A stretch of 63,596 nt of DNA, filler included, from Stramenopiles sp. TOSAG23-6 (taxonomy: Eukaryota), in NCBI GenBank assembly GCA_900128565.1. It is 14 parts of 14 records of this genome, joined end to end, with 100 filler letters (N's around TTAATTAATTAA, not from the genome) between each part and the next. Parts side by side here need not be neighbours in the genome. Positions count along the whole stretch, not along the records: positions 62,589 to 63,596 come from LT639971.1; 13 more parts are not named here. The stretch is one strand, 5' to 3'. Positions 5,155 to 63,596 of the stretch are shown here, piece by piece. Position 1 is the first letter of the stretch. Every line of letters starts with the position of its first letter. Under the pieces are notes generated by a model that saw only the letters and a program-made list of their open reading frames with translations, was not told the DNA's origin and made no database searches. A program made the position numbers and the translations under genes.

Positions 5155-5522
5155 TATTTAAGCACGTTCCGCGCGATAGGGAATAGCTAATTGCTTATTA
5201 AAGCTACGCTTGATCCTCGTCACTGGTGGTCGTGTCCAAAAACCAGGTCCTGACTGGCTATTATTATTTTTCGGCCACGTGTATATATAGGCTAGGGTTA
5301 GGGCTTAAAAATTGAGGAGCAGGTCATCTCGATGTCATGTCAATCATCATTCACACACACACACATCATTTGATTGGACGAGATCCCGATCGAGATCATC
5401 ATTGCTCTCCTTTTGAAGTCGCCAGCAGACGACTTGAGAGAGAAGACGACAATCTATTTTGAATGAACTAGGGGCATACTTTGCTACAATATACAATTTG
5501 AGTTACTAGAAGACACAAACAT

Positions 5523-14835: not shown

Positions 14836-16481
14836 ATGAGTAAACGTGGGACAAATCAGACCGATGCTGTCACAGGAGATGGCCGAGACATAGAAAATGA
14901 TATCGCAAAATTACGGAAAGCGAATAAAGCACTGCGTCAACAAATGAAAGAATTGACAAACGCACTTCACGAATTAGCACTCAGTGACAAAGCTGCAAAC
15001 TCTAGTGAAATCCGTAAACTGGAACAAGCACACCGCAGTAAAGAAAAACAGATCCGTACATGTCTCAAAAAGATTAAAATTTACAAAATAGGCAACAAAA
15101 AGCTCAAGGCACAAGTGGATGCTTGCGTGGGTGATGACAAGTTGGTAGCAGTGGAAGTCCGGATTGCTGAAAAACAAGAAGAAATCAGAAAATTAAAACA
15201 GGAAAATAAATCTTTCATTTTCAAACAACGAGTGCTAGAAAAACGATTAGATGAATTAGAGTCAATGCAAGGTGATTGGCCTAATAAAATCAAAATGTTG
15301 ACAAAGGATATCGCCGTGTATGTTTTATTTTTTTTCAATTTCGAATTTATTTTTTTTCGTACGAAATTATGTACCTAACAAATTTTTTTTTGAAATATTT
15401 TTCCAAAATACATGTAAGTTTTTTTTCTCATTTTCCTCATTTTCCTCATTTTCACTATAACTTATTTTATTTTTTTGTACCAAATCCTAATTTTTGATAG
15501 TGTTATAAAAAACTGACGAATTCCAAAATATTTTTTTTTTTTTTACAATATATNTATAAAGAGCGTATAAAAAAATGTCGAGCACAGGAATTACGACAGG
15601 AACAAATGGCCGAGCGACAGCTCGTTCAGATGCAGGATTTATCAAAAAAAAACAGTGAACTTCGTGATGAACTTAAAAAACTTGGCTTTGAGGATGATTT
15701 GTATGTTTTTATGATGAACCCTAACCCTAATCAGAGTTATTTTTGTACCTAGTATTTGGTTTTGAGTACCGTTCATATGTATTGTTCATATTCATATTCA
15801 AATTTATTATTTGTTTTTGAGTTTGTACCGTTCATATGTATTGTTCATATTCAAATTTATTATTCAAGTTATTCAAATTTTTATTTAAATGTATTAAAAA
15901 AAATTAGAGCTAATTGCCAACAATTTTTTTTTAAATATTTCTCACAATACTTGGCGAAACGCAAACAGGAAAAAATAAATCGCGAATTGAAATGGAAAAA
16001 GGATAAAAGTCGTTTAGAAAAAGAATTGAGTGAAGTAACAGAGCGACAAAAAAGAGAACGATTGCAGAATACTAGTGAACTAAATGCAAAAATGGCTGAA
16101 ATGAGATCAGTTCAACGTAAAAAAAAGGAATTCGAAAACACACTAAAAGAAAAGGAAAAGGAAGTTCGTATGTACGGTTCCATTATGAATTTCTTTTCTT
16201 TTTCTTACTACGAAAATTCCGTACCTAATGATACTTTCTTTTTTTGAAATATTTCTTCACAGTGCAGGCAAGTTCTTCGATTAAAGCACTTGAAACGTCA
16301 ACTTCGACAACTTGCTCTAGTTCCATCACCAACAGCATCCAGACGCCCACCTCGCAATACTAGTAATTTTAAAAACAATCCTTTTGAAGAAGAGACTCCC
16401 AGCACGGAAGGCGTAAGTCCTACTCAAGACGTCCAACAAGACGAAGAAGAAGAACAAAATGGGGAAATGGATTATTTGTAA
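14836..16481 (+). CDS. Coiled-coil protein, multi-exon (introns 15318-15553, 15701-15952, 16172-16267)
   Basis: Removing these introns gives a continuous coiled-coil frame ...KDIAV|YKERIKK...EDDL|AKRKQE...EVRM|QVLRLKHLKRQLRQ. Confidence 0.75.
15318..15413 (+). mobile_element. Introner-like intron, GT...AT, directly abutting a second intron (15414-15553)
   Basis: Full consensus element followed immediately by GTAAGT. Confidence 0.8.
15701..15952 (+). other. Diverged family intron, GT...TT
   Basis: TT|GTATGTTTT...AAATATTTCTCACAATAC-TT; frame restored; contains an internal duplication and CCCTAA repeats. Confidence 0.75.
16172..16267 (+). mobile_element. Family intron with canonical GT...AG ends
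   Basis: AT|GTACGG...GTACCTAAT...GAAATATTTCTTCACAGTGC-AG; AG occupies the NN position. Confidence 0.8.
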
Positions 16482-20139: not shown

Positions 20140-21063
20140 TTAAGCAGCATTTGGATATCTAAAGCTTATGTACGCTTTTTTGAACTCATCAAAACCAACC
20201 AACACAAGAGCTCCAGCCATACCGCGGAAGATATTGGCTCCAGCACCTTTAAACATAGCACCAACTCCTTCTTCTTTCAAAATCAAACCAGCACATTGCA
20301 GAGAACTGGTATATTTCATTGCATTAGCACCACCAGAGTTCATCATCATGCGACGACGAATGGTATCGATTGGGTATGCCGCAGTCGATGCAGCAGCAGT
20401 GACGCTGTAACCGAGGAGAAAACGAAGCCAAAATGAATCTGGAATCATGTTGCGACAAGTATCGTAGATACCAAAGTAAAGACCACGATAAGCAATAATC
20501 CCAACACAAGAGACCCAAAAACCGTTGTATACACCTCCTTTACAAAAGACACCTGATTTCTTAGCAGTCTTTGTGATTGTATCAATAAGACCATTGAATT
20601 CACGATCAGCACCTGTACCAACATCAACAGCAAGGCGAGTACGAGCGAAATCAAGTGGATAGACAACCGCGAGGGAAGTGGCACCTGCGGCACCACCAGC
20701 CATTACGTTGTTTAGTAGCTTTATTCCGAACGAAGAATTCTTGTCAGCTCCGAGAAGTTGTTTGAAACCCTTCTTGTAGCGCTCCTTGAACATAAAGTTT
20801 AATGCCTGAGTTGGGAAATAACGCACAACATTGGCAAGGTTACCACGCCAGAAAGAAGCAAAACCTTGCTCTTTTGGGACACGCACAAAGACATCGACGA
20901 TACCTTTGTATGGCCTGGTGATAGCCGCGGACTCTCCTTGATTTTGGAGGAGGAGCTTCACACGCTCGATTGGTGCAGCAGACGTCTTTGCTACAGCTGC
21001 GGCGCAACCAGCAAGCATAAAGTCTTCAATGGCATTTAGTTTGACTTGTTTTTGAGGAGCCAT
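20140..21063 (-). CDS. AAC: Mitochondrial ADP/ATP carrier
   Basis: APIERVKLLLQ, WRGNLANVVRYFPTQALNF, YPLDFARTRLA and the RRRMMM signature; ATG at 21063. Confidence 0.97.
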   Translation of the reverse strand: MAPQKQVKLNAIEDFMLAGCAAAVAKTSAAPIERVKLLLQNQGESAAITRPYKGIVDVFVRVPKEQGFASFWRGNLANVVRYFPTQALNFMFKERYKKGFKQLLGADKNSSFGIKLLNNVMAGGAAGATSLAVVYPLDFARTRLAVDVGTGADREFNGLIDTITKTAKKSGVFCKGGVYNGFWVSCVGIIAYRGLYFGIYDTCRNMIPDSFWLRFLLGYSVTAAASTAAYPIDTIRRRMMMNSGGANAMKYTSSLQCAGLILKEEGVGAMFKGAGANIFRGMAGALVLVGFDEFKKAYISFRYPNAA

Positions 21064-21400
21064 CGTGTGGTGATTGTACTGTGCTCGGTGTGTGTGAGTG
21101 AGTAAGTGAGTGAGTGAGTGGAGGAAAACACCACGAGTTACTTCGAAGAAGCCAGCAGCGATTTCGCTTTGACTGGCACGTGGCACACTGAAAGCAATTT
21201 TCTTCAAACCGTAATTAGGTACACAAATTTCGTACCAGAATATTAGGTATAAAATTTTGTACGAGAAATTTGAATTTCAATTTTTCAGTTTTGAGCTCGA
21301 GTTAGTTTTTGATGGCTTTTTAATAATGATTTCGCGATGATTTGACAAAATTTTTCCAATGATTTAAAAATTTTAGAATAATTCTCTTTAGCCTACTTCA

Positions 21401-23260: not shown

Positions 23261-24460
23261 TTATAAGAATAAATTTGCATAAAATCTCATGCCACTTGCT
23301 GAATCATCGCGGCAAAGTGCTCCTTTCAATTCGGCAGTTTTTAAATGTTCACTAGCCACAAGTAAAGATACATTCCATTCTTGAGAGAGTAACATTGCAG
23401 ACAAACCTGTTCCATACGTTTTTTTTCCATTCTCGAGCTTCATTGCTTCTGCTTCTTTCTCATCAACTAGACGTTTTAATTTTTCAGTTACTGCATCATC
23501 ACTAAATGTGTCCAGTTGGACAACAATAACGCCAGACGGAAATTTTCGTAAACGCATTCCAAGTTTTAGAATTGAAAGTTGTCTGCACGCCACAAGAAGA
23601 TCATCCGGTGATAAGAGTTCAGTTCCTCGTGCACGATTGTACATGCAGTATATATCCATAAGGGATAACATCCCACCAGCAGAATCTATTGGTTTTACTA
23701 TAAATCCTGAAAGTTGTCTCGCTAATTCCGAATAAAATAGATCTCCTCCAGTACCCATTGAATCACGTGTGACTGGGCTCGCAATTCCAACAGACCTCAC
23801 TAAAGAACTAAATTCCGCTTGTTCCTCGGCAGAAACATCATCACTATTTTCACGACTTGAAAGTTGTGCAACACGTTCAGCAACTTGAACTACTTCCCGT
23901 GCTTTCGCCATGAGTGAATCTAAATCCTGAAAAGCTGAGCCAGCTAGTCGTTTTCCCTTTTGCTCCTCCTGTTTTTGTTTGAATTGTAAACCACCGATAC
24001 CTGCAAATGCTGCACGCTGAGCGCCTGAAGTTCCTGAAAATGTTTTTGGTCCTTCGCGTGCTTTGCGCTCCGATTCTTCCCATGACTTCCTAGAGAGTGC
24101 TAAGGGAAGTTGCTTCTTCCAATCAGTGAATACTGACGATGAGTCATCACAAAGTTTTATCTTGAGCACAGCACCAGTTCGGGTCATAATTATTAATTTG
24201 TAACTTGCATCAAACCAACCTGTCGATTCCGATGACGTTGACGAGATATTAGCAAGTCGAAGTTCCTTTGGATTTTCCCTCGTCTTATCAACCCACACTA
24301 ATCTGAAGTTTGTGAGATATAGGAAACCAGATTGGTAGTCCTTTTGTTTATTATTATCTACATATAGCGTTGTGTTTTTCGTCTGTCTTAAAACCACCTC
24401 ATCTACGCTCATAGTGGGTATTCCCGTTTGAGCTAATTTACATGGCTTCCAATTATCCAT
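23261..24460 (-). CDS. VPS36: ESCRT-II subunit Vps36/EAP45
   Basis: GLUE domain (GFLYLTNFRLVW), AFQDLDSLMAKAREVV, YNRARGTELLSPDDL, G.LCRDDS..G.RFY.N. Confidence 0.95.
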   Translation of the reverse strand: MDNWKPCKLAQTGIPTMSVDEVVLRQTKNTTLYVDNNKQKDYQSGFLYLTNFRLVWVDKTRENPKELRLANISSTSSESTGWFDASYKLIIMTRTGAVLKIKLCDDSSSVFTDWKKQLPLALSRKSWEESERKAREGPKTFSGTSGAQRAAFAGIGGLQFKQKQEEQKGKRLAGSAFQDLDSLMAKAREVVQVAERVAQLSSRENSDDVSAEEQAEFSSLVRSVGIASPVTRDSMGTGGDLFYSELARQLSGFIVKPIDSAGGMLSLMDIYCMYNRARGTELLSPDDLLVACRQLSILKLGMRLRKFPSGVIVVQLDTFSDDAVTEKLKRLVDEKEAEAMKLENGKKTYGTGLSAMLLSQEWNVSLLVASEHLKTAELKGALCRDDSASGMRFYANLFL

Positions 24461-24675
24461 CGTGTATTCAATCTCAAATCACATTCACTAAATAAGATTA
24501 TCAAACAAATAATGTTTTTTTTTGACTCGTAAACTTTGCGAAAAAAAATTTGCCAAAAAGAAAAACAGGTTTGTCACAGCGCCAGCTCAAGTCAAACTGA
24601 CTGGACTGGCGTCAACAAAACCACCCACTTACTTCTGCGCATCGGCTGCAGCATTTTATTACAGATTTTATTAAG

Positions 24676-26263: not shown

Positions 26264-27472
26264 TTATTTACTCAAGATTTGATGTTTCACGTTTTCTCTT
26301 TTTACTCAACATTTCTTCTAAAGTAGGTAACAAAATGTCTAATGATTTCATAGTAAACTCTGGAGTTTTTTGTTCATGTATTTTAGAAAAATATTTCAAA
26401 TTTTTTTTTGAAAATTTGTTAGGTACAAATTTTCGTACGAAACCAAAAAAAAAAAATCAATTTCAAATTTTAAAAAAAAAAATAAAACATACATCACTCG
26501 AAGAGTCACTGACAAATTCAGATAACTCATTTTCATTTGTTGCACCAGACATCACTAATATAGTTCTGAAACCTCCTCTATTTCCAAATAACATATCCGT
26601 GTCTAATCGATCTCCAACAAAAACAACGCGATTTGGATCTTTGGGAAGATTAAATTTTTTTTTTGTTAAATTTGCTAAATTTAATGAAGGTTTGCCACAA
26701 ACAACAGGATCGACTCCCCCTGCGATGTGTACAGCAGAGACTATACTGCCACCACCTGGAACGAGTGGACCATTTTTTAATAGAGGTGAAGCGGCATCAG
26801 TGTTTGTGGCAACAAAATAAGCTTTACCATATCGAAGATACATGTATTGTGAAAAAATATTTTTTTTTGTAAAATTTCTTAGGTACAAAATTTCGTACGA
26901 AAAAAAAATTTAGACAAACAATTTGAAATTCAAAACATAAAACATACATGGAGGCTTTGTGTAATTTACCATAGCAAAAACTCCCATCAAATCCAACAAC
27001 AACGCCAGAAACATTAGGATTCATATCTTCGAAACCCCATGACTTGACATCATCAAAATTTTTATTTTTGTCTTCTAACCCAAGAGTGACGAAACCATCC
27101 GATTGAAGAGTTTTATGTAAACCTTCTTCACCAACAACATATAAAGTACTACCCGCTGCAATTTTTTCTTTGACATGCCGAGAAGCAGCCATTGCAGAAG
27201 ACATCAAATCACTTTCTCTTACCTCTATTCCTAAATGCTTAAACTTTGCCTTAAAATCAGCGACTGTTTTAGTGCTATTGTTTGTCACATAACTTACANA
27301 CTTNCCNANTTTTTTTNANTGCTNCGACAACTTTATCAGATCCATTGATAACTTTAAGACCAGTCCATATCACTCCATCACAATCAAAGACAAAAGCATC
27401 TATGCTATTAATCAAATCGCAAATAACATCTGATTGGTCTTTCAATAAAGTTTTAGGCGGGACCATTGGCAT
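26264..27472 (-). CDS. PGP: HAD-IIA phosphoglycolate/4-nitrophenyl phosphatase; introns 26842-26947 and 26376-26492
   Basis: FDCDGVIW, VTNNS, FVATNTD, CGKPS, VGDRLDTD; frame break only within the N-containing stretch 27299-27325. Confidence 0.92.
26376..26492 (-). mobile_element. Introner-like intron, GT...AT
   Basis: Joins SSD|EQKTPEFTMKSL, a HAD-IIA C-terminal P.F...SL motif. Confidence 0.85.
26842..26947 (-). mobile_element. Introner-like intron, GT...AT
   Basis: Joins KASM|YLRYGKAYFVATN. Confidence 0.88.
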
Positions 27473-28469: not shown

Positions 28470-31400
28470 TTATAGTGAAGCTGATCGTTGGAGACAAGAC
28501 ACTCTTCGATGACGAAACATTGCATGACGTCCAACATCATCAAGTGTTTGAAGTCTGTAATCATTCTTTACTAAAGTTGTTAATTCTCTCCTAACGTTTT
28601 CGTAAAACCTTTTAAATGAGAAAATACCTAACTGCCCTCGTAAAAATTCCACCAGGTACAAACCTGTTCGTAATTGAAATACACGTACTGTACAAACAGA
28701 TACTCCTGCTCTTGTTACATTGAGGGAATATTTATCCCAATCAGATATTACCTTTTGACGGATGTGTTTATAGGGGTATGTAATGCAAAAAAATATTTCA
28801 AAAAAAAATTAAAAATTTTGTTAGGTACAAAATTTTTTTACNAAAAAAAAAAAAAAAAAATTTAAAAAACAAAAAAAAATTAAAAAAAAAAAAATTAAAA
28901 AATAACGTACAAGGCAATGGATGCGAGTCAGCTTCAACAATGTTTGCAATTCTTCGTAATACAGCAGCAGCTGGAAACGTTGTAGTAAACCGAGTAGATC
29001 TTTTCACAGTATCAACAAATAAAGGGACATTCTTCAGGTCATTTTTTATATTTTTTATATTTTTTGTGTTTTTTGTATTTTGTATATGTTTCGTGTTTTT
29101 GAGTGTCTTTTTTTCATGTATATTTTTTTCATTTTCCACATACTTATCATTATTATTACTAGACAATTTCATATCAGAATGTGTAGCAATTGTATCATTA
29201 CATTGTAAATTAGAAAAATTGTCTTTAGTAGATTTTATTTTTGTTGGACTATTAGGGTTAGGGTTCCAGCGATGATGAAGTTGCATTGGTAACAAACTCC
29301 TAGGTGATGGAGACCAATTTTTTGCTGAATCACGAAATCTTCGACTTTCAACATCAGTCATTGGATAGCATATACTGTAAAAAGATATAACATAGAGTAT
29401 TTATTTTTGTTACAAAATTATTATTCCAAAACATTTAGTTACAAAACAAAAAAACAAAGAAATTTCAAAAAAAAAAAAAATTAGGGTTAGGGTTATTCAA
29501 AAAAATAAAACCTACATAAATCTTCAAATATTTCATCATCAAAAGAATCTGATGTAATAAATGAATGTGGAGATAAAGTATGATCTGAAAATCGACGTCT
29601 TGGGTGTAAATTTGATGTTTTACTTGACTTGTTTGATTGAGCACCGACTATATCGAGTGGAAGTGATCTCGCACATTGCGATACATTTTGATAATTTGCA
29701 TTTTGTAAAGATTGACAAGTGGTAGGACTAGGGTTAGGGCTTTCATTGTACAAGTCATTATACAAATCCATTTGAAAAGATTCATCATTTTCACGTTCTA
29801 TCCTATTTTGAAGTAGCTGTGGCGCTAAAGGAGGCGACGAAAAAAATGGTGTATTTCGTGTTTGTCTTGACTTTGTAGAATTGAAATTTGTTTTTTCTGT
29901 ATTTTCTGTATTTTCTGTATTTTCTGTATTAGGGTTGTTGTCAAATGTATGTGAATTTCCAATTTGTTCATTTTTTCTAGAATTTGCATGTTTTGTTAAA
30001 TATTCCCCTGGTGTAGTAGATGTAAGAGAATTAGTAAACATTGTATTATTGTCTTCAGTACATTTTCTAAGAGAACGAAATGGCCTATGAGTCCAAGTGT
30101 TACCCGGTGACAGTTCTTGTTTGAATTCACCTATGTCATCAAGGTCATGTAAAGACTCAAAATCAATCCAAAGTGGTTTTTGTTTTTGTTGTTGTTTTTG
30201 TTGCTGTGAATCAACAACATCTATCACTTCAATTATTTCATCTGTTGTATTATTTCTTGAGTTATGTTTTAAATTATGTTTTGAATTATGTTTTAAATTA
30301 TGTTTTGAATTATTTTTTGAATTATTTTGTGTTAGCCATGGATGACGTAATGCTGATCGTACGGAAATCCTATAGACAGGATCTGGTTCCAATAATTTTG
30401 TTAATAAATCTATCGCCTTGATGGAGAAATTTTTAGGAAAAAACCAATTTGGATACAATGTATCACTTTTTTGCTTCATAGGAAAAAGCAATGCTTCAAT
30501 ACATTGGTTATCATTGATAGTATCATACTCATTTCCAATAGCTTCTTCATTAGTGTTAGAATTGTACGAAAAAAGTTGTTTATTATTGAGTTTTTGTACT
30601 TGATTTTGTTCTAGTGCTGTACATTTATGTCGTTTTTGACACTGAATTTGATATTTATGTAAAATTTCACGACGATGTTGTGTCCATTCACGCCATTTTG
30701 CAAATCGTGGACATTGGAGCAAATCTTTTCCAAAGGGTAAGTTTCCTGCAAGCATTGCATATAAGATGATTCCTGACGACCAAACGTCAACAAAGACTCC
30801 ATCATAGCCTCTATTTGGAGTATGTTCCTCAGAATTGATTCTACGATTACATGAATGCTCAGATGTTGATGATAACGATGAAAGGACTTCAGGTGCTACA
30901 TAATGTGGAGAACCAACAACACTTTTTAGACGTCTTATATCTACTGTATTATTGTTTGCCGGACCTGCACTAAATTTCATTTTTTTTATTGAGAATATAT
31001 CAGATTCATTTTGAGAATCTCCGAAATAAGCAGAAAGTCCAAAATCAGCAATTTTTAAAGTCGGATACATATCATCATGATCGGAAAGTAACAAATTTTC
31101 AGGTTTTAAATCCCGATGGCAAACACCTCTTTCATGACAAAATAAAATACCTTGTAGTAATTGTTGGTAATATCTACGAGCGATGTTTTCTTCCGTTCCT
31201 CGATCAATCAAAATTCGATCAAACAATTCACCACCAGACGCCAACTCAAGCACTAAAAAAATTGTACTTTTTGACACATTAACTAATTCAAGAACTTCAA
31301 TCAATCGTAAAACATTTTTATGTCCGCTTAAATAAGCCATATGTTGTATTTCTTGCAAAATGTTTCTTCTATCTTTAATAAAAGCTGCATATTTAGACGA

Positions 31401-45422: not shown

Positions 45423-48400
45423 ATGAACATGAGTTCTCTAGGTACAAAATTTAGTACGGAAAAAACAAATAATGTCGAACAAAATACAGAAGTCAACCCT
45501 AACCCTAATGTTGATAATAACCCTAACCCTAATGATAATGAACGTCTAGATATCAAAAATGATTGTCCATTTTTTGAAAAAAAACAAAAAAAACAAAAAA
45601 CATATCTTCAAAATCTTCAAAATCAACAATATAAAAATAGTCAAAATACAGCATTTGATATATCACAAAGATCCACAGCTGTACTGTATGTTTTTTTTTT
45701 AAATTTGAAATTGAATTTGTTTTTTTTTTTTTTTTNNNNNNNNNNNNNNNNNNNNNNNNNNNNNNNNNNNNNNNNNNNNNNNNNNNNNNNNNNNNNNNNN
45801 NNNNNNNNNNNNNNNNNNNNNNNNNNNNNNNNNNNNNNNNNNNNNNNNNNNNNNNNNNNNNNNNNNNNNNNNNNTTTTTTTTTAAAATTGAAATTTAATT
45901 TTTTTTTTTTTTTTTTTTGGTAAAAAAATGTTGTACCTAACATTTTTTTTTTTTTTTTTGAAATATTTTTCCAAATTACATGTACGAAATGGATGGTTAC
46001 CCTAACCCTACGAAATTAAATGTACAAGAAAGTAAAACGAATGTGTCACGAGGGTTAGGGTTAGGGTCACGAGGACATTTGAATACTAAACACTCAAAAG
46101 TGGATCGTGTACGTTTTCAATTTTTGTTTTTTTTTCGTACGAAATTTCGTACCTAACGATTTTCATTTTTTTTTCATTTTTTTTTTTCATTTTTTTTTCA
46201 TTTTTTTTTGTTTTTTTTCGTACGAAATGTTGTACCTAACAATTTTTTACTACAATTTTAAAAAATATTTTCTAAACAGTACATCAACGTCATCCTATTT
46301 CAAGCTTCACTGCAGACGCGCGTAATTTATCTTTTATATCACCAAGCCCAACTCCAGTCCTTCTACATCGAAAACGAGTTAACCCTAACCCTAACCCTAA
46401 AGAAGATGTTTCAAATAGACTCTCTAATCCTAAAGAAGATGTTTCAAATAGTCTGTATTCTAGTATTTCTACTAATATTTCTAGTATGTCTTTACAAGAT
46501 AATGAAACACAAAAATCACAAAATATTGACAACATTGGCAAGAAAGATCAAATCCTACTAACTCATCAAGGATCTCAAAATAATACTGTTCATTCACAGT
46601 TAAATTCTACTATAAAAACACTTGAGAGTGCATCAAAAGCAGCATTAATAAGAACAAATACATTGAAAAGAAATCTAGACAAAAACAATATACAAAATTA
46701 TTCAAGAGTAGAGACTATTAGTACTACTACTACTACTAATAATAATATTCATACTACTACTACTACTAATAATAATAATACTACAACAAATACAAATAAA
46801 TATCTCACAAAATAATAGTTCAAATATTGATACTGAAGTCATCTTTAGGTCGCAAACGCAATATGAAATGAGATCTACACAACAATACAACCCTAACCCT
46901 AACCCTAACCCTAAAAAAAACACACTGAACTCAACTGCTATCCCTAACCCTACAGAGATATATCAAGATATTGAGAAAAAATCAAAACGTTCTCGAATTG
47001 TCCAAAAAGTAGGTTTTCAAAATTGATTCTTTTGTTTCGAAAAAATTTCAAAAAAAAGTTGAAATTTTTTTTTTTAACATTTTTTTAACATTTTTTTAAC
47101 ATTTTTTTAACATTTTTTTAACATTTTTTTTACATTTTTTTTATATTTTTTTAACATTTTTTTAACATTTTTTATACAAAAACGTTTAGCTTATATATAT
47201 ATATTTCTTTTACACTATTTTCACAAAATACAGGTACTTCAGAGTTGGAAACATGTATGTTTTTTTTTTTTTTTAATGTATTAATTTTTTTCGTACGAAA
47301 TTTTGTACCTAACAACTTTTTTTTTTTTTTTAATATTTTTCCAAAATACATGGCAGGCTTCGGAACAATATTACAAATCAACAAAAAACGAGCCCTAACC
47401 CTAGTGGTAGTGTCCAACAAACTGCACATTCAATTATAGAAAACTATCAGGAGCAAAAACATTCTCCAGCAAACCCTAACCCTATTTCAAAAAATATCGA
47501 CAATCATTCAGTAAAAACACGAAATAAATCTTTGAACAAAACGTTGAATCCAAACAATACAAAATTTTATATGCCAGCGTATCACAAGGGGTTAGGGTTA
47601 GGGTTAAAACGAACAAAAAACCAAATAACAATTCGACCATTTTCAACACCAACGGAGATGAATCCCAATCCTAATAACCCCAACCCTAATAACCCAAATC
47701 AATCAAAGCATCAAAATCATCCTTGTTCAACTAACCCGAATAACCCTAACCCTAAATTTCAACAACAAAATGAGCAAAACTTTCAACAAATTCTTCATCA
47801 TTATTCTTCTGTACAACATAACAAAAATGATGGACATGTACGTTTTATATGAATTTCTAATTTAATTTTTTATATGAATTTCTAATTTAATTTTTTTTTT
47901 TTTGGTTTTTATAAAAATTTCGTACCTAACAAATTAAATTTTTTTTTTTAAATATTTTTTCACAATACATCCTAATTATAAATCCTTAAGTAACACTTTA
48001 AATATTGTGTCGCCTTTTGTAACTGAAAAAATAACAGAAAAAATAACAGAAAAAATAACAGAAAAAAAAAACAGAAAACCCTAACCCTAAGGGCGACATT
48101 CGAAATGTGTTAATACACCCTAACCCTAGATTAAATACACATTCAACTTCAAGTGAGAAAGAAGAGTTTAATCGTGTTAAATTGGATAACTATTTACGTG
48201 TATCGCGCGGGTCACGTACAACAAGCCGTAACCCTAACCCTAATCGTGTTAGCCATATATCTGCAGCAACTGCTGTGGCTGCAGCAGCATCTGCTGCTCG
48301 AAATAAAGAATTTGAAAAAACATCTACAACACGAAATAAAGAATCCTTCCATAGGATTTCGACGCCGTATTTGTTAAATACTAGGACAAACTCTACAAAT

Positions 48401-50544: not shown

Positions 50545-51065
50545 TTAATGTTTTGCGTTTTTTTTTGCTTCCAACACATCTACTGTGTTAAAAAACAATC
50601 CATCATCATCACTTTCAAAGTCATCATTATAATTATTATTATCATTATCATCATTATTATCAATATTATTATCAATATTATTATTTTTTTTTGTTTCGTT
50701 ATTTTGATTTTTTTTCGTTTCATTTGTACTAAATGCACCTACAAATTCAAAATATGAAATTTTGGTGTCATTATTTACATCACAATATTTAAATAATTGT
50801 AACATTTCTTCATTGGTTGGTTTTGGTATAATATCTAAACACGAAATCCCAAATTTCATCTCTGAAAATGTAATTTTGGTTTCACTGTTTTTTTTAATCC
50901 AATGAAAGAGTTTGTCATATACTGTGAAAAAATATAAAATAGAGTTTGACACGTATATTAGATAATATAGATTTATTCTATATGAAAATCACAAGAATAC
51001 ATTTGCATCATTTGATCATTTGATCATTTGATCATTTGAAGTGAATGTTAAAAGTGATTACAATC

Positions 51066-51102
<37 letters not shown>

Positions 51103-51112
51103 TAGCAAAAAA

Positions 51113-51144
<32 letters not shown>

Positions 51145-51475
51145 TTTTTAGGTACAAAATTTTTATAAAAACCAAAAAAAAATTTCAATTTTTTTGTAAA
51201 AAAAAAAATAAAACATACATCATCATCATCAGATGGAGTACTATTCGATGAAATAGACGTAGAATTAGTTGTCTGATTATGAGCTCTTCTATCATGTTGT
51301 TGTAATGCCAACTTTGCTTTTTTTATAGCCATGTTTTTGTTTTTATTTTTTGATTTATTTTTTGATTTATTTTTTGATGAAAGAGAATATCTATCATTAT
51401 TATACAAAGCTGATACTAATTCCTCATAACTAATACTGTTCGAACTATCTAAATCAAATGATGCAAATACGATAT
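50545..51475 (-). CDS. EF-hand protein, 3' exons; intron 50917-51218
   Basis: FDLDSSNSISYEE and CDVNNDTKISYFE loops. Confidence 0.7.
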
Positions 51476-51773
51476 TGTAAGGAAATATGTCAAAAATTTC
51501 AAAAATGTTTGTTAGGTATGAAATTTTTTTTTGAAATTAAAAAAAAATAAAAAAACAACAATCATTGCTTGGGTACACATCTTTACAAAAAACATTTAAA
51601 AAAAAAAAAANNNNNNNNNNNNNNNNNNNNNNNNNNNNNNNNNNNNNNNNNNNNTTAATTAATTAANNNNNNNNNNNNNNNNNNNNNNNNNNNNNNNNNN
51701 NNNNNNNNNNTTTTATAAAAAAATAAATTCGATTTTTTTTTACCGGAAAAAAAAAAAAAAAAATAAAACATAC

Positions 51774-52964
51774 ATAGTACATGCTATAATATAACTTTGT
51801 CCTGCTTCAAGTCCATTTAATCCTGCATATATGTAATACGAAAAATATTTCAAAAAAAAAATTACAATCTGTTAGGTACACACTTTCGTACGAAAACCAA
51901 AAAAAAAAAATGATGAAAACGTACATGTTGATTGAATTCGTGCAGAAGATACCGAGAAGACACGTATTGTGAAAAAATATTTCAAAAAAAAAAACTTAAA
52001 TTTGTTAGGTACGAAATTTCGTATGAAAACCAAAAAAAAAAAATTAAATTAGAAATTCATATAAAACATACACGCATATACAAAATAGAATGGGCCCAAA
52101 TCAACCAAAATACCATTTGAAGTTGAAAAATATTTAACAGGAAATCCCAAGTAGCTAAATGGTTGAATGATCACATCTATAATTGCAGCTAAGTGATGCC
52201 CGGCAGGGAAGGAAATGTATATTGTGAAAAAATATCTTTCAAAAAAAAACCTTAAATTTGTTAGGTACAAAATTTCGTATGAAACCAAAAAAAAAATAAA
52301 TTTGAAATGAATGATGAAAACGTAGATGAGTCGAACCACCCGTTGTAAAATAATAACAGAGTAGTGGCAAAGAAGCAAAGCCAGGCAAGATGATCTTATA
52401 GCGCCATCTAAGTTCTAATACATCATCTGCAAATCCAAGAAATAACATGAATGTGATAGAAGCCAAAGCTGCGTTATACGCTGCTAGCTCCTCATGAGAA
52501 CGAGCAAAAGCACAGCCCATTAGAGTTACACAAATGAGATATACTGTGCCACAAACAATTCCCAAAGACTCCGCAACTTTAACTTTTTCTTTTGACGTTC
52601 CACGACGACCAAGATCATAACCCCAAAGATTTGCACGAATCAACATCAATTTTATTTGAGGAATAATTTGAACAGTTGATATATACGAAAAAGTACATAA
52701 AAATAACACACAAAATATTTTTGTATTTCGACCACGAAAATCTCCATCTTGATCAAAATATACAGTACCACGTGACCATAACTGTACTAACAATACCATT
52801 GGCAATATTAAAGGTCCAAGGATTGTAATATATTGAAACGTCGAGCACATACTGTTTGACATAGAAAAAGAAACATTTGAAATATCTGCTGCTAACTTTT
52901 CTTTTTCTACCTTTTTATTTGCAGCTGTTTTACGAGATCTCAGTTCCAAATTAGGATTTACCAT
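51774..52964 (-). CDS. DPAGT1: UDP-GlcNAc:dolichyl-phosphate GlcNAc-1-phosphotransferase (3' truncated); introns 52217-52325, 51962-52071, 51831-51924 and one starting at 51773
   Basis: VAESLGIV, FLGFADDVLELRWRYK; spliced product [35 protein letters not shown]. Confidence 0.95.
51831..51924 (-). mobile_element. Family intron, GT...AT
   Basis: Removal restores the conserved [13 protein letters not shown]. Confidence 0.92.
51962..52071 (-). mobile_element. Family intron, GT...GT
   Basis: Removal restores [11 protein letters not shown]. Confidence 0.9.
52217..52325 (-). mobile_element. Family intron, CT...AC on the sense strand
   Basis: CAT|CTACGTTTTCATC...GTACCTAAC...CACAATAT-AC|ATTTCC joins GGSTH|ISFP. 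Confidence 0.75.
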
Positions 52965-53409
52965 GGAAAGACAACGGTCTTCTATTGGAGATGAATGGTA
53001 CTACTCGGGTTCTTATTATGTGTGCTAATAATCAATTCGATGCTTATTGATGCGAGGTGCAACGTGATTGTATTCTGCTAATGCTATTTTTGGACTGTAG
53101 ACCTATATTATAATATTACGTCTTCACATGAAATCGTAAGTTTTGTTGTTTACGTTGTTTACACCACGTATAACTACGAAGTAGCAAAATTTAATGAGAT
53201 GACGATGACATCATTGTTGAATCTCAAATCATTTTGAAATTTTTGATTGATTTTTGTTTTCGAGATTTCGTGTTTCGGAAATATTAGTCATTTTCAATTT
53301 CGAGTTGTCTTTTTATGTCTTTTTTTATTCGTAATTATTCACAAAAAACACGACTTCTTTTACTTCTTTTACTTCTTTTACTTCTTGCAGGCATTAACTT
53401 GACTAAACA

Positions 53410-54477
53410 ATGTCTTTCCCTTGGAATGAAAATTCAGCACCAGCTCCTGTTCGAGGTGCGCGACGTGGTCGAGGAACAAATGAAGCTCCGACTTCACTAT
53501 GGGGTCCACCTCCTGCTCAGTCAGAAAATAAATCGAGGGGTAATCCTTCACAGAGGACTCCACCACCGTGGGGTTTAGACCAAACAAAGTCTCCAACTTT
53601 GACACAAGCACAAGTGCTTCATCAAAGACAACATAACCAACACGCAAAACTTACCAATGAACCTAAAAGTTTTGCACGTGAAGAGTTTGTCGCACAGACT
53701 TCAAATGTACCTCTTCCAAAAAAGTTTGAAATACCTGAAACTTTTCCCGAAGAAGAGCAGCGTTTGGTCGCGGATATGATGAATAATGGATATGAAGAGG
53801 CACAGATTATCGAAGCTATTATGGATCTGCGAGAATCGTTAAAGGCTCAACTGCGAAATTGGCAGGCGAACGAAAACGAACGCGGGAGAAACAAATTACG
53901 CGAGGGATCTCAAGAAATGTTCGCAAACTCTTCGCAGAATCAGGGCCAGATGAACGTCTCCCCTCCAGAATTAACACATCAAAGTGTGAATTCCGGTAAA
54001 CAATCTCGGAGTGATATATCGGCTCCTTGGGATAGAGAGGAAAAGATTCGTCCTGGAATTCGCAGAGTGTCTCGAAACAGGAGAGAAACTGCTCCATTTG
54101 CAGTTGATGAAGAAAACCTCAAGACGAATGGCACACAACACGTCAATCGTGGAAATACCAACGGCATAATGCAAAATCAAAAACGAGATCGTCGGACACT
54201 AAAAATGCAGCGAGATGATAAAGTTAAAGCACGCGAGGAAGGGAGTAAGATGTACGTTTTCATAATTAATTTCAATTTTTCTTTCATACGAAATTTTGTA
54301 CCCAATTATTTTTTTTTTGAAATGTACGTTTTCATTTAAATGTCCAAACTTTAAAACAATATTTTTCTAAAATTCAGATGTGCTGGAGGTGTCGTCTGGC
54401 AGTCAGCTGCACGGGATTCAAATGATGCAGCGCGGGCAACAAGAGAGAGAAATATGGGAACAACCTCGCTTTGGTAA
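53410..54477 (+). CDS. Hypothetical protein; GT-AG family intron 54252-54377
   Basis: Spliced frame ends ...GSKI-CAGGVVW...MGTTSLW*. Confidence 0.6.
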
Positions 54478-54774
54478 AACAATTTTTATTGATATTATCA
54501 AATAACCGGGGGGAACTCCCCGCGGGGGGAGGGTAAATTTATAAGTTATTATTCAAATTTGAGTTATATAAGAGAGTCATCCGCTCTAAATAAAAAATCC
54601 ACCGCAAGGCAAACATACTATTATTTCTCTCCCTTGTTGCTCGCGATGATCCATGAAACTACCTATGAATCCAATAGCAAATATCATTGGGGTGCTAGCA
54701 ACGGGATTTGGATGCACCTGCACCGACGATCAAAGTTGAGTATTATCTTGAAGGACATTTTTTAGGTTTAAAAN

Positions 54775-56622
54775 TTAAATATAGTGGGTACTCGAAACAA
54801 GAGTTGGATACACTTGTACCGAGGATAAAAGTTGAGTGTTATCTTGAAGAATCTCCTCTGGGCTATGTAAACTGGAGCCAATAACTTCAGTGCCCCAACG
54901 ATATACATCACCTTTCTGAGTAAGAATCAAATTGCTCGTACTACCGGCTGATATTTCAGTCACATTTTTTTCATTCAAAGATAAGACTTCAGTAGGAATC
55001 ATTCGCCTGGAAAAATCTCCCACACCTAGTTGACCATCACCACCCATACCGAAGCTATATACAGTTCGACATTCTTCTGTTAACACAAGGCTGTGATCAC
55101 TGCCTGCACTTATTTTTCTGATGGATGTTCCTTGTAAAGTTTCTATTTCAACTGGAAATAATTTATTTTCTCCTTCTTTTACACCATCCCCATGCTCAAC
55201 AGATCCGTGACCAAGTTGTCCATCAACTCCATAACCCCAAGAAAAAACTCTACCAGGAACTCCTTCCGATGATGTGCCAATTGCTAGACTGTGATATCCA
55301 CCAGCGCTTACTTGAGAAAATGATCTCTTTGCCATACTTTCGATCCGTTTTGGTGAAAGCACTTTTTGTGTATCACCGTGGCCCAATTTACCAGCAAAAC
55401 CTGAACCCCACGAAAAAAGAAAACCTTGATCTTCAAATCCACGGATAAAAGAGTGTTTCTGGGAAGCTATCGCAAGTGTGTGATTGCCACCAGCAGAGAT
55501 CTGTTCAACATTGTAGTCTTGAAATCCAGGAATAAACGTAGGACTTAAACGTGTGTTCTCATCGCCAGTACCTAATCTGCCTGACTTACCTTGACCAAAA
55601 CTAAACACAGTTCCATTATCGAACAAAACAACACTATGGACTGTTCCTGCACTCACTTGTGTTGCTTTGCGACCTTCAATATTTTGGATAACAGTGGGCT
55701 CTTCCCGATCATCAGTATCTCCATGTCCCAGTTGGCCAGTAAATCCATCACCAAAACTAAACACGTCTCCTGTTGTTGATAAGAGCAAAACATGGAAAGC
55801 ACCGACACTTACTTGCACAACTAAAGACTGACGGAGAGAAGCAACCACGTTACACACGGCAAAGCTTGGAAACAATTCAGGTTTGCCTTCGCGGTTGGCG
55901 TCAAGATCGCGTTGTTGTTGCAAAAGTAATAGTTGCTGCCGAAGAAATTGTCGACGTTCTTGGGGTTTTCCTCCTCGGACCGAAGAGTTACTATCAATCC
56001 CGAAAACTGAATGAACGTCACCATTCACATTTAACACTAGATTTTTGTGAGCGTCTCTAGATCCACTACCAGATGATATTCGACACTCGGGTGAATGAGA
56101 GAGTTTTTTGTTTTGTCGAGACACAAACTCTATTTCACTGAGCCAATGAGGCCACGACTTAAAGTTCCCTTTTGATAACCAAAATGTTTCTGAAAGAATA
56201 TCACGCGCACGATCACAACATGCGAATTGAATAAGTTTTTCTTCGAATAAAGAACACACGATCGGTATTGAACGCAGCTCATCAACTGTCATAAATGTGA
56301 GAACTTTCACGATCATATCTTCGCCTAGCGGGAAGGATGAACTCGTTTCCGACACACTTGAAAAGTCATGCTTCTTCGAGGCTAATGAAATAGATCGGGA
56401 AAATGCAGGTAAGGGCTTTCGAACACGTAAACGTTTCTTTTGGGTACTATATAGTATACTTTTTCTAACTTTGAAAGAGGCGAACTCGGAATATTTTTTC
56501 TGACCGAGCGCATCATACGGGGATCTACCTTTTTTTTTGTTTTTGAAATCATTCTGTTTACTCTCTACCAAATCCGATAGACGACATGGATATGAACACG
56601 ACCTACGGAAGCCACTACTCAT
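54775..56622 (-). CDS. RCC1-repeat (UVR8/HERC-like) protein with possible F-box-like N-terminal motif
   Basis: Multiple (V/I)SAG..H....G.V(F/Y)S(F/W)G.G..GQLG.G repeats; LGEDMIVKVLTFM motif. Confidence 0.88.
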   Translation of the reverse strand: MSSGFRRSCSYPCRLSDLVESKQNDFKNKKKGRSPYDALGQKKYSEFASFKVRKSILYSTQKKRLRVRKPLPAFSRSISLASKKHDFSSVSETSSSFPLGEDMIVKVLTFMTVDELRSIPIVCSLFEEKLIQFACCDRARDILSETFWLSKGNFKSWPHWLSEIEFVSRQNKKLSHSPECRISSGSGSRDAHKNLVLNVNGDVHSVFGIDSNSSVRGGKPQERRQFLRQQLLLLQQQRDLDANREGKPELFPSFAVCNVVASLRQSLVVQVSVGAFHVLLLSTTGDVFSFGDGFTGQLGHGDTDDREEPTVIQNIEGRKATQVSAGTVHSVVLFDNGTVFSFGQGKSGRLGTGDENTRLSPTFIPGFQDYNVEQISAGGNHTLAIASQKHSFIRGFEDQGFLFSWGSGFAGKLGHGDTQKVLSPKRIESMAKRSFSQVSAGGYHSLAIGTSSEGVPGRVFSWGYGVDGQLGHGSVEHGDGVKEGENKLFPVEIETLQGTSIRKISAGSDHSLVLTEECRTVYSFGMGGDGQLGVGDFSRRMIPTEVLSLNEKNVTEISAGSTSNLILTQKGDVYRWGTEVIGSSLHSPEEILQDNTQLLSSVQVYPTLVSSTHYI

Positions 56623-56993
56623 ACTGAGATAGAATAGTACACAATGTCCCCTTTGAGATCAATGAGATAGATAAAATATCTTTAAAACCAGTGAAGAATT
56701 CGAATTGTGTTTTCTTTTTACTGGTACAGGACTGCATAAATGCCATTCTACGTCATTCATTAATTTTGAAACAATTTGAAACGTTGAATTTTCGTAGAAT
56801 TCGTGTTTTCAAATAATCTGAAATCGCGAAGAAGAAGGAAAATGTCGTCATATGACAGCAAGAAATTTTTTCATTGGCTTGACACAGACATTGCCGATTG
56901 GATTGACCACCAGATAGATTCTTTCACCACTTTGTAATAAGTCTTTATTTATTACACTCTTGAAGCATTCACACCAATTTTAAAGATTGACTT

Positions 56994-58055
56994 ATGAGCA
57001 AACTACTTTCAAGCAAAATGATTACGCTTCCTCCGACAAAAAATGATACTAAAAGTTACGCATTACACCTTAACAACGTAAATGTTTTTGATGCTATCAT
57101 AAGAGTTTTATCCAGTGTCGATGTAAGTTCTGATGCCAATCTCTTTGCTGTTCCACTGCTATACCATGCAGTTGCTGCCGATGAAATTGATGGCGTTCGA
57201 ATGCTTTTAAATCGGTGTAAATTTGACATTAACAGGAAGGTTGAAATTAAGAACCTAGTTCAAGGTTACACTGCACTTCACTTGGCAGTTGATCAAGTAC
57301 ATCCCGAAATTGTGTCAGTCTTGCTTTCCCACGGCGCCACAGTCGAAACTAAAACGAATAGTGGTCACCTCCCTCTCAACATTGTAAATATCCCTTATTA
57401 CCCAATGTTGTTTTCTACTTTTCAAATATTATGTCACCTTTTTCTCATTCTTATTACAATTTGTCACTTTAAAAATTTACATGCAGCAATTCGAGGAAAT
57501 GTTTCAATCGTCGAAATGCTTTGTAGATTTGGTGCCAAAGTAAATGCAAAAGGATCACATGGAAATTCCCCTTTGATTGATGCAGCAGAAGCTGGTAACA
57601 TTAAAAGTGTTGAGTATCTAATCAAAAATGGTGCGAATATTCATGCGCAAAACGACTCCGGAAGCACAGCCTTAATCCGTGCAGCGTTCTGTGGTTACTT
57701 CAAAATTGTTTATTTTTTATTACTTAACGGAGCAATTGTAGATCACCAAGATAATATTGGTAATACTGCTCTGATGAAAGCTGTCATCAAAGCTCAAAAC
57801 GTTGAGGTCATTAAAATACTTTATAAATTTGGTGCGTGTAAACATATCACGAATAAATATGGCAACAGTGCTTTGAAAATAGCATTAGAAGACCAAAACC
57901 AGTTCATCGTAAGAGTTTTATCTGAAAGTTGTATGATTTATTTTTTTTTTTACAGAAAAATCGAATTTATTTTTTTCGTACGAAATGTTGTACCTAACAA
58001 TTTTTTTTTTTTTTGAAATATTTTCCTAAAATATAGACGTGATATTGTTGAATCA
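56994..58055 (+). CDS. Ankyrin-repeat protein (3' truncated); introns 57384-57482 and 57931-58036
   Basis: GYTALHLA, GHLPLNI|AAIRGN, GNSPLIDAA, GSTALIRAA, GNTALMKA. Confidence 0.9.
57384..57482 (+). other. In-frame 99-bp intron GT...AT lacking the internal family motif
   Basis: The 33 inserted codons split an ankyrin repeat; removal gives GHLPLNIAAIRGN. Confidence 0.85.
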
Positions 58056-59264: not shown

Positions 59265-60203
59265 AAATACTTAGAGCCAACTCGCGTTTTGATTCATATA
59301 CTGTATCTTTCGCTAGCCTTTTTTGAAATACCGTTTTGGATGAGGGAAAAATCTTCTGATGAATTGACGCAGTCACTTGAAAAATATAATTACTATACAC
59401 ATGGTCGAGAATATTGGTCTATGACGACTGTGAAATCCTTAGAATTTTGTTTATTACTTTTAGAAGCGTTTGGACTAGTATACTTTGGCTCGATAATTAA
59501 AAGTGAGGTAGTGTCAGAACATGCAACTAACGTGCAGAGCGCTGCTAGTAAAAATATGTCAGGTCAAGAGTCTATGTTCGTTTTCATCATTCATTTTATT
59601 TTTTTTCATAGTAAATGTTGTACCTAACGATTTTTTTTTACGAAAACGAAAAAAAATACATTTTTCACGATACATGAGCGGATTGGTACGGTTATGGCGA
59701 TTTTCACATTGGATATTTTTCGATGCAAGTGTTTTACTTATAGCTTTTATAGATTTATTTCTGTATTCCATTGATTTTTCTTCAGGATTTCTTGGTTCTC
59801 TAATTAGACCCATAATTTGGATTTTATTTATTCATGTATATTTTCATCATGAATTTTTTACCTACATTTTTTTTTTCATAGAAAATTTTGTACCTAACAT
59901 TTTTTTCTCTTTTTTAAAAATAATTTTATTTATTCATCCTGTACGACGAACAATGGGTTTTATAATTAGACTTTTTCGGAGAATTGCTGATGTCCTTTTA
60001 TTACTTTTTGCAGTAGTCGCAATGTTTGCTTGCTTCAGTTATTTCTTATTTAAACCCAAAAATGGAATTATCAATGATACAAACGAAGGCTTTGGTTTCT
60101 CATCATTTTGGGAATCATACAAAACTTTATTCAAGTGTGTAACACTTGTAAATTTTCCTGATTTTATGAATTCTGGATACGCAGAGTTCTCGTGGTTCCC
60201 TTT
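59265..60203 (+). CDS. Ion-transport domain protein (two-pore-channel-like) fragment; introns 59576-59675 and 59836-59937
   Basis: L.LAFFE.P.W; IRP helix; FSSFWESYKTLFKCVTLVNFPDFM pore motif. Confidence 0.75.
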
Positions 60204-61582: not shown

Positions 61583-62373
61583 ATATGATTATTAAATAAA
61601 TTTTGTAATTTTTCATTGGCAAAATTAATACATAATTGTTCAAGAGAATTAATTTGCATAATTTCAAAACCAAAAATATCTAAAATACCTATAAAATTTG
61701 ATGAATTATTATTATTACTTGGGGTAGGGTTAGGGTTATCAGTAGTAGGGTTAGGGTTATCAGTAGTAGGGTTAGGGTTTATATTATTTTGAGTGTGGTT
61801 TTGATGATTTGATGAATTTTCATATATTAAATGTTTTTCGTGTAGTATTTTGTTACACACTTCTTCCACAAGCCATGTAAAAATACGTTGATAAATATTC
61901 TTGACTAATGACATCGTATATAATATGATACAATATTTCAAAAAAAAATTTAATTTTTGTTAGGTACAAAATTTCGTACGAAAAAAATTTTCAAAAAAAC
62001 AAATTTCAAAAAAAATATAAAATTACATTTTCTCGTGCTTTTGAAATGGTACATAATTTATCTGTATATTTTGAATTTGGTAAATACAAACGATATATAC
62101 ATAATAAATGAGTCAAATCTGAGTCAAAGCCTAATAAGGAAAATGCTTGTTTGGCATTATTTACATTTTTGATTTTTGTTTTTTTTTCATTTTTTTTTGA
62201 ATTTTTTGAATTTTCTACATTTTTTTTTGAATTTTCTGTAAATTCTAAATGTAATAAATGTAATACACCCACAAGTACTTGCCATATAGTACTTTGTTGC
62301 TTCATAGACACACCAAAGTGTAATAATGCTGCACGTATGCCTGTCGCGTCAGGATCATTTTCAATAAATGGAT
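61583..62373 (-). CDS. Myosin motor domain fragment; intron 61918-62026
   Basis: [14 protein letters not shown] and [11 protein letters not shown]....[16 protein letters not shown]. Confidence 0.92.
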
Positions 62374-62488: not shown

Positions 62489-62643
62489 NNNNNNNNNNNN
62501 NNNNNNNNNNNNNNNNNNNNNNNNNNNNNNNNTTAATTAATTAANNNNNNNNNNNNNNNNNNNNNNNNNNNNNNNNNNNNNNNNNNNNATTTCGTACCTA
62601 ACAAATTTAAGTTTTTTTTTTGAAATATTTTTCCAAAATACAT

Positions 62644-63596
62644 AATTATGGGAGGAGTAAATCATACAAGAAATACACTAGAAGTAAAGAGATTTTTTAA
62701 ATATATAGAAAATGGAAATTGGTATCAAGCCAAGAATTTACTGGAGGATATAACTGAAAAATATGTACAAGAATATCCAAATGATATAATACGCCCACCT
62801 AGTTGTAATGAATGGAAGAAATGTACCACAACTTTTATTGATATTGAGGGCGAAAAAAGAAAAAAAGGTGAATATTTTCGAGTAAATTCTGATGCAGCTC
62901 AAAACTATTTTGAACGTCATAAGCATAATTTTAAGGATGTACAATGTAAAACAAAATCGTTTTCGACCATTCTAGATGCTAGAGATTTAAAAGCACAAGG
63001 ACTGGTATATCACAATATAGATATAAACAAAATGAAGGAAGGACTGTCCCGTTTTGAAACTACAGAACATTACTATCAACATATACATAATGTAATCTAA
63101 TGAAAAAACAATTTTTATTTTAAAATATTTCCTCACGATGCATGATAATAGGACAATTGAGAGACTTGTACTGAAAAAACGCAGGTATAGGTTTTTTGAT
63201 AGTAAAGAGACAATTATTCGACGTATTGCTGATCCAAAATTCCTAAATTCCATTTGTAATGATCGTCCAATATTTATGCGTTTGAAAAGCAAAATAGATC
63301 CTATATTCATTGCTAACATTTGTCTTGAAATATCCAAATCCAAAGAATCTAATTTGGATGAAGATGATCCAGGAAAGTTTCCATCTCCGCCAGGGGTTGC
63401 TTTAATTAGTCGTAATATGCATACGGAGTTATTGTTTAACGCTTCACATAATGAAGAGGTGTCTCCTAGGTTAATTGAGATGCTGATCCAACTTGGGGCT
63501 GATGTCAATCATGGTAATTCAACAGGCTTTCCCCCATTATTGGTTGCTTCATTGAGAGGTCATGTGGAAGTAGTTGCAAAACTTCTCAAAGCTAAA
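62644..63596 (+). CDS. Ankyrin-repeat-containing protein fragment; 52-bp intron 63092-63143
   Basis: Intron removal joins HIHN|DNRTIERL...; ends LGADVNHG...GFPPLLVASLRGHVEVVAKLL at the window edge. Confidence 0.7.

Follow-up and report, generated by a model that had tools for sequence, protein, structure and literature searches.

Most introns of the stramenopile sp. TOSAG23-6 appear, from their DNA sequence, to end in AT rather than in the near-universal AG, a terminal signal that is among the most conserved in eukaryotic gene expression. The window, i.e., the whole stretch of 63,596 nt that was analysed, consists of eukaryotic contigs chained by N spacers. In it, 33 intron segments were placed by motif and reading frame, and 29 of them have ends other than AG (AT in 23, TT in three, and CT, GT, and AC in one each, against four AG ends). 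We favour, with moderate confidence, the explanation that these are AG-independent introns of an introner family, that an intron of only 52 nt at 63092-63143 is a shortened member of this family, and that the tolerance of non-AG ends likely resides in the spliceosome. Of this explanation, the sequence features, the family relationship, a duplication signal, and non-AG junctions fixed by homology are shown; that the introns are spliced at all, their precise register, removal by a spliceosome, and the way in which the cut is measured are inferred.

According to this explanation, the introns would mostly be copies of one MITE-like introner with short inverted ends (GTA...TAC), and the 2-base target duplication (NT, mostly AT) would supply the last two intron bases. 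Removal would most likely be carried out by a U2-type spliceosome, the GT donor, CTAAC branch box, and pyrimidine at -3 being kept, and this spliceosome would no longer need the final G. The cut might be set by an upstream 3' cassette, approximately 14 nt after AAATATT. The 52-nt intron would have lost its 5' half and would use the GT of the core as its donor. An intron of 99 nt within an ankyrin gene (57384-57482) would be a real non-AG intron, derived from a second element or from an unrecognisably old copy; the tolerance would then probably be a property of the spliceosome and not of one sequence. In this organism, introns of the element family very probably have, as a rule, an end other than AG. 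A general tolerance beyond the element is plausible, at around an even chance or slightly better, and rests here on one intron.

If this is true, a second AT-acceptor lineage with GT donors would isolate the 3' recognition step, and it would become testable which factor (U2AF1, step-two factors, or U6) must change for an element to spread as an intron. Whether it is the spliceosome or the element that confers the tolerance is a question to which the 52-nt and 99-nt introns are relevant. In this organism, most genes with introns would be modelled wrongly by gene finders that insist on AG.

Intron ends and the introner family

Donors are GT in 31 of the 33 segments and CT and TT in one each, the donor word being GTAYGT (U2-like), and a CTAAC branch-like core is present in 26 of 32 segments. 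Position -3 is a pyrimidine in all 33 and position -4 a purine in 31, in agreement with the terminal RY-NN that had been proposed in a previous sequence-only reading of this DNA. The end of an AATATT-type box lies 14 nt from the cut in 20 segments, 13 nt in three, and 15 nt in one, and the box is absent in nine, a count that is partly circular because the box was also used for placing intron ends. The same reading had put forward a motif roughly 10-14 nt before the end and the terminal pattern as substitute 3' signals. An AAATATT box 13-15 nt before the cut and a pyrimidine at -3 are indeed real regularities; however, AAATATTT as a universal substitute signal was rejected, since it is absent in 9 of 33 segments. 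Inside the family the box marks intron ends well, but the 99-nt intron lacks it, and it therefore cannot be universal.

In an automatic frame check, 27 of 32 segments pass, and the five misses comprise a tandem pair (in frame if both are removed), one start placed two bases off, one short exon phased by homology, and a terminal exon. Given that 7 of 28 non-AG introns have an in-frame AG for the same donor no more than 30 nt away, the reading frame alone offers little proof of an intron end. An out-of-frame AG lies 5 nt ahead of the predicted AT end in three cases (29370-29515 on the minus strand, 50917-51218 on the minus strand, and 46109-46284 on the plus strand), and its putative skipping there fits a position rule over AG scanning.

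An insert with a GTACCTAAC core gave 51 matches at up to one mismatch, against 6.7 expected. With 51 cores and 33 segments, the window holds many similar introns in unrelated genes, as is characteristic of introners. The upstream exon dinucleotide is identical to the terminal intron dinucleotide in 20 of 32 segments (permutation p 0.0003), and for ends that do not start with A the identity is found in five out of five (p 0.0001); both form the pattern that a target duplication of two bases leaves. Terminal repeats in inverted orientation have only 3-4 perfect bases in 21 of the 33 segments, 0-2 in 11, and six in the 99-nt intron. Typical family copies have a core-to-end distance of 43-56 nt. 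No match to the exact 22-base core word was found in viral and metagenome contigs. Individual segments are as follows:

57931-58036 (+): family intron with an AG end at the family register (motif and frame)
16172-16267 (+): family intron with an AG end at the family register (motif and frame)
47009-47233 (+): AG-ending intron with a family-like 3' end (3'-end features)
54252-54377 (+): AG-ending family intron with two donor-like starts (motif and frame)
29370-29515 (-): core-poor segment, GT...AT by prediction, whose end is family-like and is preceded at 5 nt by an AG out of frame (motif and frame)
15414-15553 (+): core-poor segment immediately after the family copy at 15318-15413, AT end (motif and frame)
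15701-15952 (+): long core-poor intron, GT...TT (motif and frame)
62594-62643 (+): core-to-end half of a typical family intron at the contig start, in the same gene as the 52-nt intron, AT end (27.8 bits)

All four segments with AG ends have a family-like 3' end. Core-poor segments with non-AG ends are those at 15414, 15701, 29515, 57384, and 63092.

Several irregular structures were also observed. The segments 15318-15413 and 15414-15553 (+) adjoin each other directly, without an intervening exon, and the intron at 54252-54377 (+) contains another donor word at 54324, after which comes a short tail that lacks the core; judged by sequence, 15318-15553 and 54252-54377 are putative nested or tandem insertions. 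A micro-exon of 21 nt (47234-47254, +) has an AG-ending intron before it and an AT-ending one after it. Two family introns have a non-GT start with the rest of the donor word kept, namely 52217-52325 (-) with CT and 40475-40574 (-) with TT, which may reflect donors that are relaxed as well, or sequence errors. In a channel gene, the intron at 59836-59937 (+) repeats at its end approximately 14 bases of the end of the preceding exon, and the entire intron is stop-free and in frame. An LRR gene contains a possible extra intron near 35300-35680 (-) that may end in AG; pieces of the element occur there in either orientation, and the gene is possibly a broken one.

Junctions fixed by homology and the 99-nt intron

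Homologous proteins bear on five of the junctions:

51962-52071 (-): DPAGT1 intron 2, GT...GT (22 homologues; no in-frame GT-AG option in the scanned range)
51831-51924 (-): DPAGT1 intron 3, GT...AT (22 homologues; no in-frame GT-AG option in the scanned range)
52217-52325 (-): DPAGT1 intron 1, apparently CT...AC (homologue scoring)
26842-26947 (-): PGP/HAD phosphatase intron, GT...AT (exons colinear with solved phosphatases)
61918-62026 (-): myosin intron, GT...AT, with a diverged 3' end and the 14-nt spacing kept (solved myosins)

When donor and acceptor shifts in DPAGT1 were scanned against 22 homologues, introns 2 and 3 obtained their top score at the non-AG junctions. For intron 1, CT...AC leads among the junctions listed when scored with the two closest homologues (464, the best GT-AG option reaching 388) but not over all 22 homologues. 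In the PGP intron, in-frame AG options occur only at -36 and +96. The myosin intron contains no AG, and the nearest in-frame AG (+18) would cut residues aligned to solved myosins; the upstream exon has a weak PDB match only, and support for this junction comes from its downstream side. In these alignments, homology excludes AG ends in the DPAGT1, PGP, and myosin genes.

The 99-nt intron interrupts an ankyrin repeat:

57384-57482 (+): GT...AT intron, 99 nt, inside an ankyrin repeat, with no clear core and no AAATATT box at its end (profile, matrices)
56994-57383 (+): ankyrin-gene exon ahead of the 99-nt intron (ORF and Pfam)
57483-57930 (+): ankyrin-gene exon behind the 99-nt intron (Pfam and frame)

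The earlier coordinates and lengths of the 52-nt and 99-nt introns, each GT...AT without AG, are borne out by the sequence. The further claim that the two behave in the same way was not confirmed: the 99-nt segment forms 33 open codons within a single ankyrin ORF and fuses no separate frames, and the AAATATT box is missing near its 3' end. A junction test was performed with 1104 stop-free candidates on a profile derived from seven ankyrin repeats of this window. With the GT...AT junction, ankyrin profile positions 2-29 are recovered gap-free (14.6 bits, rank 26), the highest score of any GT-AG option or of retention is 10.7 bits, and none of the top 14 candidates ends in AG. Higher scores, up to 20.4 bits, are obtained by shifted junctions that do not begin with GT, and hence the protein fixes the absence of AG better than it fixes the exact register. 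The 99 nt are exactly one ankyrin period, and solved ankyrins (ankyrin-1/2 chains) align across them gap-free. A degenerate ankyrin repeat was nevertheless rejected, since the insert has no Pfam match and no score on the ankyrin profile, and on a coding model it ranks lower than all 189 coding windows and slightly higher than all 26 intron windows; compared with its own exons, it ranks lower than each of their 20 windows.

The reach of the tolerance depends on what this intron is. It is the sole candidate here for an intron unrelated to the element, and the better test case; it may also be a second element or a very old family copy. An organism-wide AG-independent 3' rule beside normal GT donors, whereby any intron, derived from the element or otherwise, may end Y-N-T with a cut placed by its distance from signals upstream, would have arisen independently of that in the tunicate Fritillaria and would excise exactly even the 52-nt half-element, whose branch box is nearly adjacent to the donor; we give this broad form somewhat less than an even chance. 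A narrower alternative, which we consider rather unlikely, would confine the tolerance to the element family: the 3' cassette would recruit the machinery, unrelated or ancient introns would be GT-AG, and the 99-nt intron would be an old copy. Consistent with the narrower reading, all other segments examined have family traits in the core or the 3' end, and the 99-nt intron itself resembles family copies in length, ends in TAC-AT, and has a CTCAT box at -39. This intron also has inverted ends of its own, 6 nt long and lying inside its last two bases. Against the narrower reading, the similarity of the 99-nt intron to the family is not significant (its score is reached by 51 of 300 shuffles), it carries no cassette (-12.4 bits on the 3' matrix and -3.8 bits on the donor matrix), and none of the introns placed in the window is a GT-AG intron unrelated to the family, a candidate near 35300-35680 being unclear.

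The 52-nt intron and alternative boundaries

The favoured reading of the 52-nt intron as a shortened family member involves the following features:

63092-63143 (+): predicted intron GT...AT, 52 nt, corresponding to the core-to-end half of the introner family (no AG inside; alignment; in frame)
63092-63101 (+): degenerate core copy GTAATCTAAT (versus GTACCTAAC), predicted donor (11.2 bits)
63123-63130 (+): AAATATTT box 13 nt before the intron end, its AAATATT ending 14 nt before the cut (motif)
63160-63161 (+): canonical in-frame AG, rival acceptor of the same donor (70-nt intron), 18 nt beyond 63143
62644-63091 (+): upstream exon, open frame without known relatives (ORF and homologue search)
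63144-63596 (+): exon behind the intron, containing ankyrin repeats and truncated where the window stops (Ank_4 and Ank of Pfam, both over the cut-off)

Aligned end to end with the core-to-end half of the copy at 47838, the 52-nt intron is identical in 39 of 52 columns, and its mean family alignment score was reached by none of 500 shuffles. Its start attains 11.2 bits on the core matrix if one base is left out; on the family donor matrix it scores -8.7 bits. Its core sits 52 nt from the intron end, within the range of typical copies. Thus, the earlier statement that neither short intron has the core holds for the 99-nt intron, where no clear core is found, but not for the 52-nt one, which starts with the degenerate GTAATCTAAT. 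The motif expected some 10-14 nt before the end was found in place. Homology to the family is present, and the family donor and T-rich 5' half are absent, which suggests a truncated derivative rather than a full member. The simplest history would be a deletion between two GTA words, with the duplicated AT left on both sides. Being derived from the element, the 52-nt intron cannot show non-AG splicing beyond it. The proposal that non-AG acceptors are a general property of splicing in this organism is partly supported, as non-AG ends prevail in the window (29 of 33 segments, core-poor ones included), but its extension beyond the element draws on the 99-nt intron.

A boundary at 63143 is likely, as the register matches that of the family. 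On a 3' matrix built from positions -22 to -3 of 26 core-bearing introns (last two bases left out), 63143 is the best end downstream of the 63092 donor, at 13.8 bits, a value reached by 5 of 122,945 background positions. Removal of the 52 nt joins open frames of 156 and 151 codons, as had been claimed; however, this fusion is not unique, because eight in-frame GT-AG pairs surround the intron, one of which (63092-63161) shares its donor. A misplaced boundary is improbable; in that case the intron would be of the canonical GT-AG kind, either at 63092-63161 (70 nt, same donor) or at 63046-63151 (106 nt, the usual family length). Both options are in frame and stop-free, a YGTTTT donor-like word lies approximately 45 nt before the core (chance expectation about 0.013 in that range), and no homologue decides the boundary, given that no real homologue of the gene was found in protein searches or JGI metagenomes. 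Two matches (an immunoglobulin-repeat protein and a TPR protein) were rejected as homologues, being weak, scattered, and short of the junction. The 70-nt option is opposed by its end at 63161, which scores -16.7 on the family 3' matrix, and by the stretch 63144-63161, which scores as coding (0.54, a value reached by none of 204 intron 18-mers). The 106-nt option is opposed by the composition of 63046-63091, which has only 30% T compared with 43-66% in 27 family 5' halves and does not align to those halves.

Less probable again is a longer intron of approximately 97 nt with a degenerate non-GT donor near 63047 and the same end at 63143, in which the core would be the branch site at its normal distance. 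Such an intron would avoid a 9-nt lariat problem: a branch-like CTAAT lies only about 9 nt from the donor of the 52-nt intron, which counts against the short form. A start near 63047 keeps the frame of 63144, donors other than GT occur in two more members (CT and TT), and the coding score of 63047-63091 is 0.0, below all 52 windows from the exons of this gene (0.01-0.96). On the other hand, this stretch is not T-rich, 8 of 52 exon windows and 34 of 500 shuffles align as well as it does or better, and the first three donor bases would all deviate.

The shortened family member with a GT...AT register thus remains the reading that we favour, and a register shifted two bases to the left, which would give NT...AC introns of a U12-like AT-AC kind and a 93-nt AT-AC intron at 57388-57480 in the ankyrin gene, has a very small probability. 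Owing to the duplication, both registers yield the same mRNA in 20 of 32 cases, and an ATATCC word in the ankyrin insert resembles the U12 donor. Nevertheless, the AT-AC option scores 13.0 bits with ankyrin profile positions 2-5 lost, the occurrence of AG at the same register in four members favours GT...NN over the shift, and the upstream dinucleotide varies (AT 19, TT 7, CT 3, GT 3, AA 1) whereas in the terminal one A is favoured at -2.

Small shares of 51711-54770 were found in eight metatranscriptome runs, four of which were aligned on 51711-58055. None of the 15 joints listed, out of 38 in these four contig sets over 51711-58055, is an exon-to-exon joint; the joints link element copies. 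Depth is 0 over 56799-57858, which spans the 99-nt intron. In a single sample, two contigs still contain the intron 54252-54377 in unspliced form; they may derive from DNA or from pre-mRNA. Three runs (X1-X3) gave 712, 947, and 748 contigs on 51711-58055, with a summed depth in the thousands on element copies and mostly below 7 on exons, an excess that could reflect either a very high copy number or abundant intron RNA. The least probable reading of all is that the inserts are not spliced (i.e., retained introns, pseudogenes, excision at the DNA level, or structure-guided non-spliceosomal removal as in euglenids), which would accord with the open ankyrin insert of 33 codons and the lack of spliced reads in the four contig sets, but conserved genes such as DPAGT1 would be broken unless their inserts are removed, the 99-nt insert does not score as ankyrin, and folding z-scores are 0.1 and 0.3 for the 52-nt and 99-nt introns. 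A conserved hairpin or end pairing was likewise rejected as a 3' signal, since pairing of the ends is inconsistent over 27 folded introns, and the stable end-pairing structure of the euglenid type is not found.

Comparison with known systems and genomic setting

The closest precedent is Fritillaria. There, 3'-AT is the commonest acceptor in F. borealis and F. pellucida (34% and 44% of introns), YAY triplets occur at both intron borders, and U2AF paralogues are divergent or duplicated (PMC13326754); the introns have a transposon origin, inverted repeats, target duplication, and U2-type splicing (PMC13326754, PMC11282704), and the main classes of F. borealis start with AG (AG/AC, AG/AT), with canonical introns at conserved positions (PMC11282704). 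Splicing of the Fritillaria type is further marked by altered snRNA methylation. Common to both systems are the 3'-AT, YAY before the donor and at the intron end, target duplication, and, as the likely reading here, a transposon origin and U2-type splicing. The introns described here differ in having GT donors (31 of 33) and one family with a branch-like core, and they belong to an unrelated lineage; in addition, the tunicate case is backed by long-read cDNA, whereas the present one is known from DNA sequence. The known kind is therefore that of transposon-derived 3'-AT non-canonical introns, and what is new is the lineage and the retention of GT donors.

Introners of Micromonas and Aureococcus are likewise short repeated introns with one splice site derived from duplication; they have inverted ends, to which the short repeats here may correspond. 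However, Aureococcus introners keep canonical motifs (PMC7789003) and in a Micromonas example the AG comes from the target duplication (PMC11282704), so that both keep AG ends, whereas here the duplication would supply NT. A large introner survey expected 3' sites of AG and AC and checked other families by hand (PMC12130899). In Amoebophrya, more than 60% of introns are non-canonical and some are repeated, without consensus terminal dinucleotides and with inverted repeats of 8-20 nt that form hairpins (PMC7789003). Amoebophrya is similarly a marine protist in which most introns are non-canonical and part of them repeated, but the introns here have a regular GT donor and Y-A-T end, and their ends pair weakly. 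U12-type introns resemble the present ones in tolerating non-AG ends and in having their cut a short, constant distance past a box upstream (in part from PMC11282704). They differ in their long donor, compared with GTAYGT here, and the introns described here are the majority class. The combination of a long U12 donor with AT-AC or GT-AG ends is not found, the donors being GTAYGT, and the AT-AC reading of the ankyrin gene fits worse; of the U2-type features, the GT donor, branch box, and pyrimidine at -3 are present, and the AG acceptor is found in only 4 of 33. The literature covered, mostly non-subscription papers, yielded nothing on non-AG introns of MAST-3 or other stramenopiles.

The best named match of an ADP/ATP carrier gene (20143-21060) is a protein labelled GSMAST32 with 87% identity, a label which we take to stand for MAST-3, and from this sequence we read the source organism as a MAST-3-like stramenopile, i.e., an uncultured marine protist. 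Long conserved-looking genes form single open frames (3310-5157, 35957-37549, 54775-56658, 23261-24478, and 20140-21276), which suggests that few ancestral introns are left; such scarcity may have made a changed 3' rule easier. A search of the window against Rfam gave no snRNA, and its sole match is a tRNA gene at 37704-37776 (-). Frame shifts within short homopolymer runs at about 49585 (+) and about 48055 (+) are probably single-base assembly errors and not introns. AACCCT telomere-like repeats occur inside open frames (46889-46914, 61724-61779, and many ORFs), where they are translated as Asn-Pro runs.
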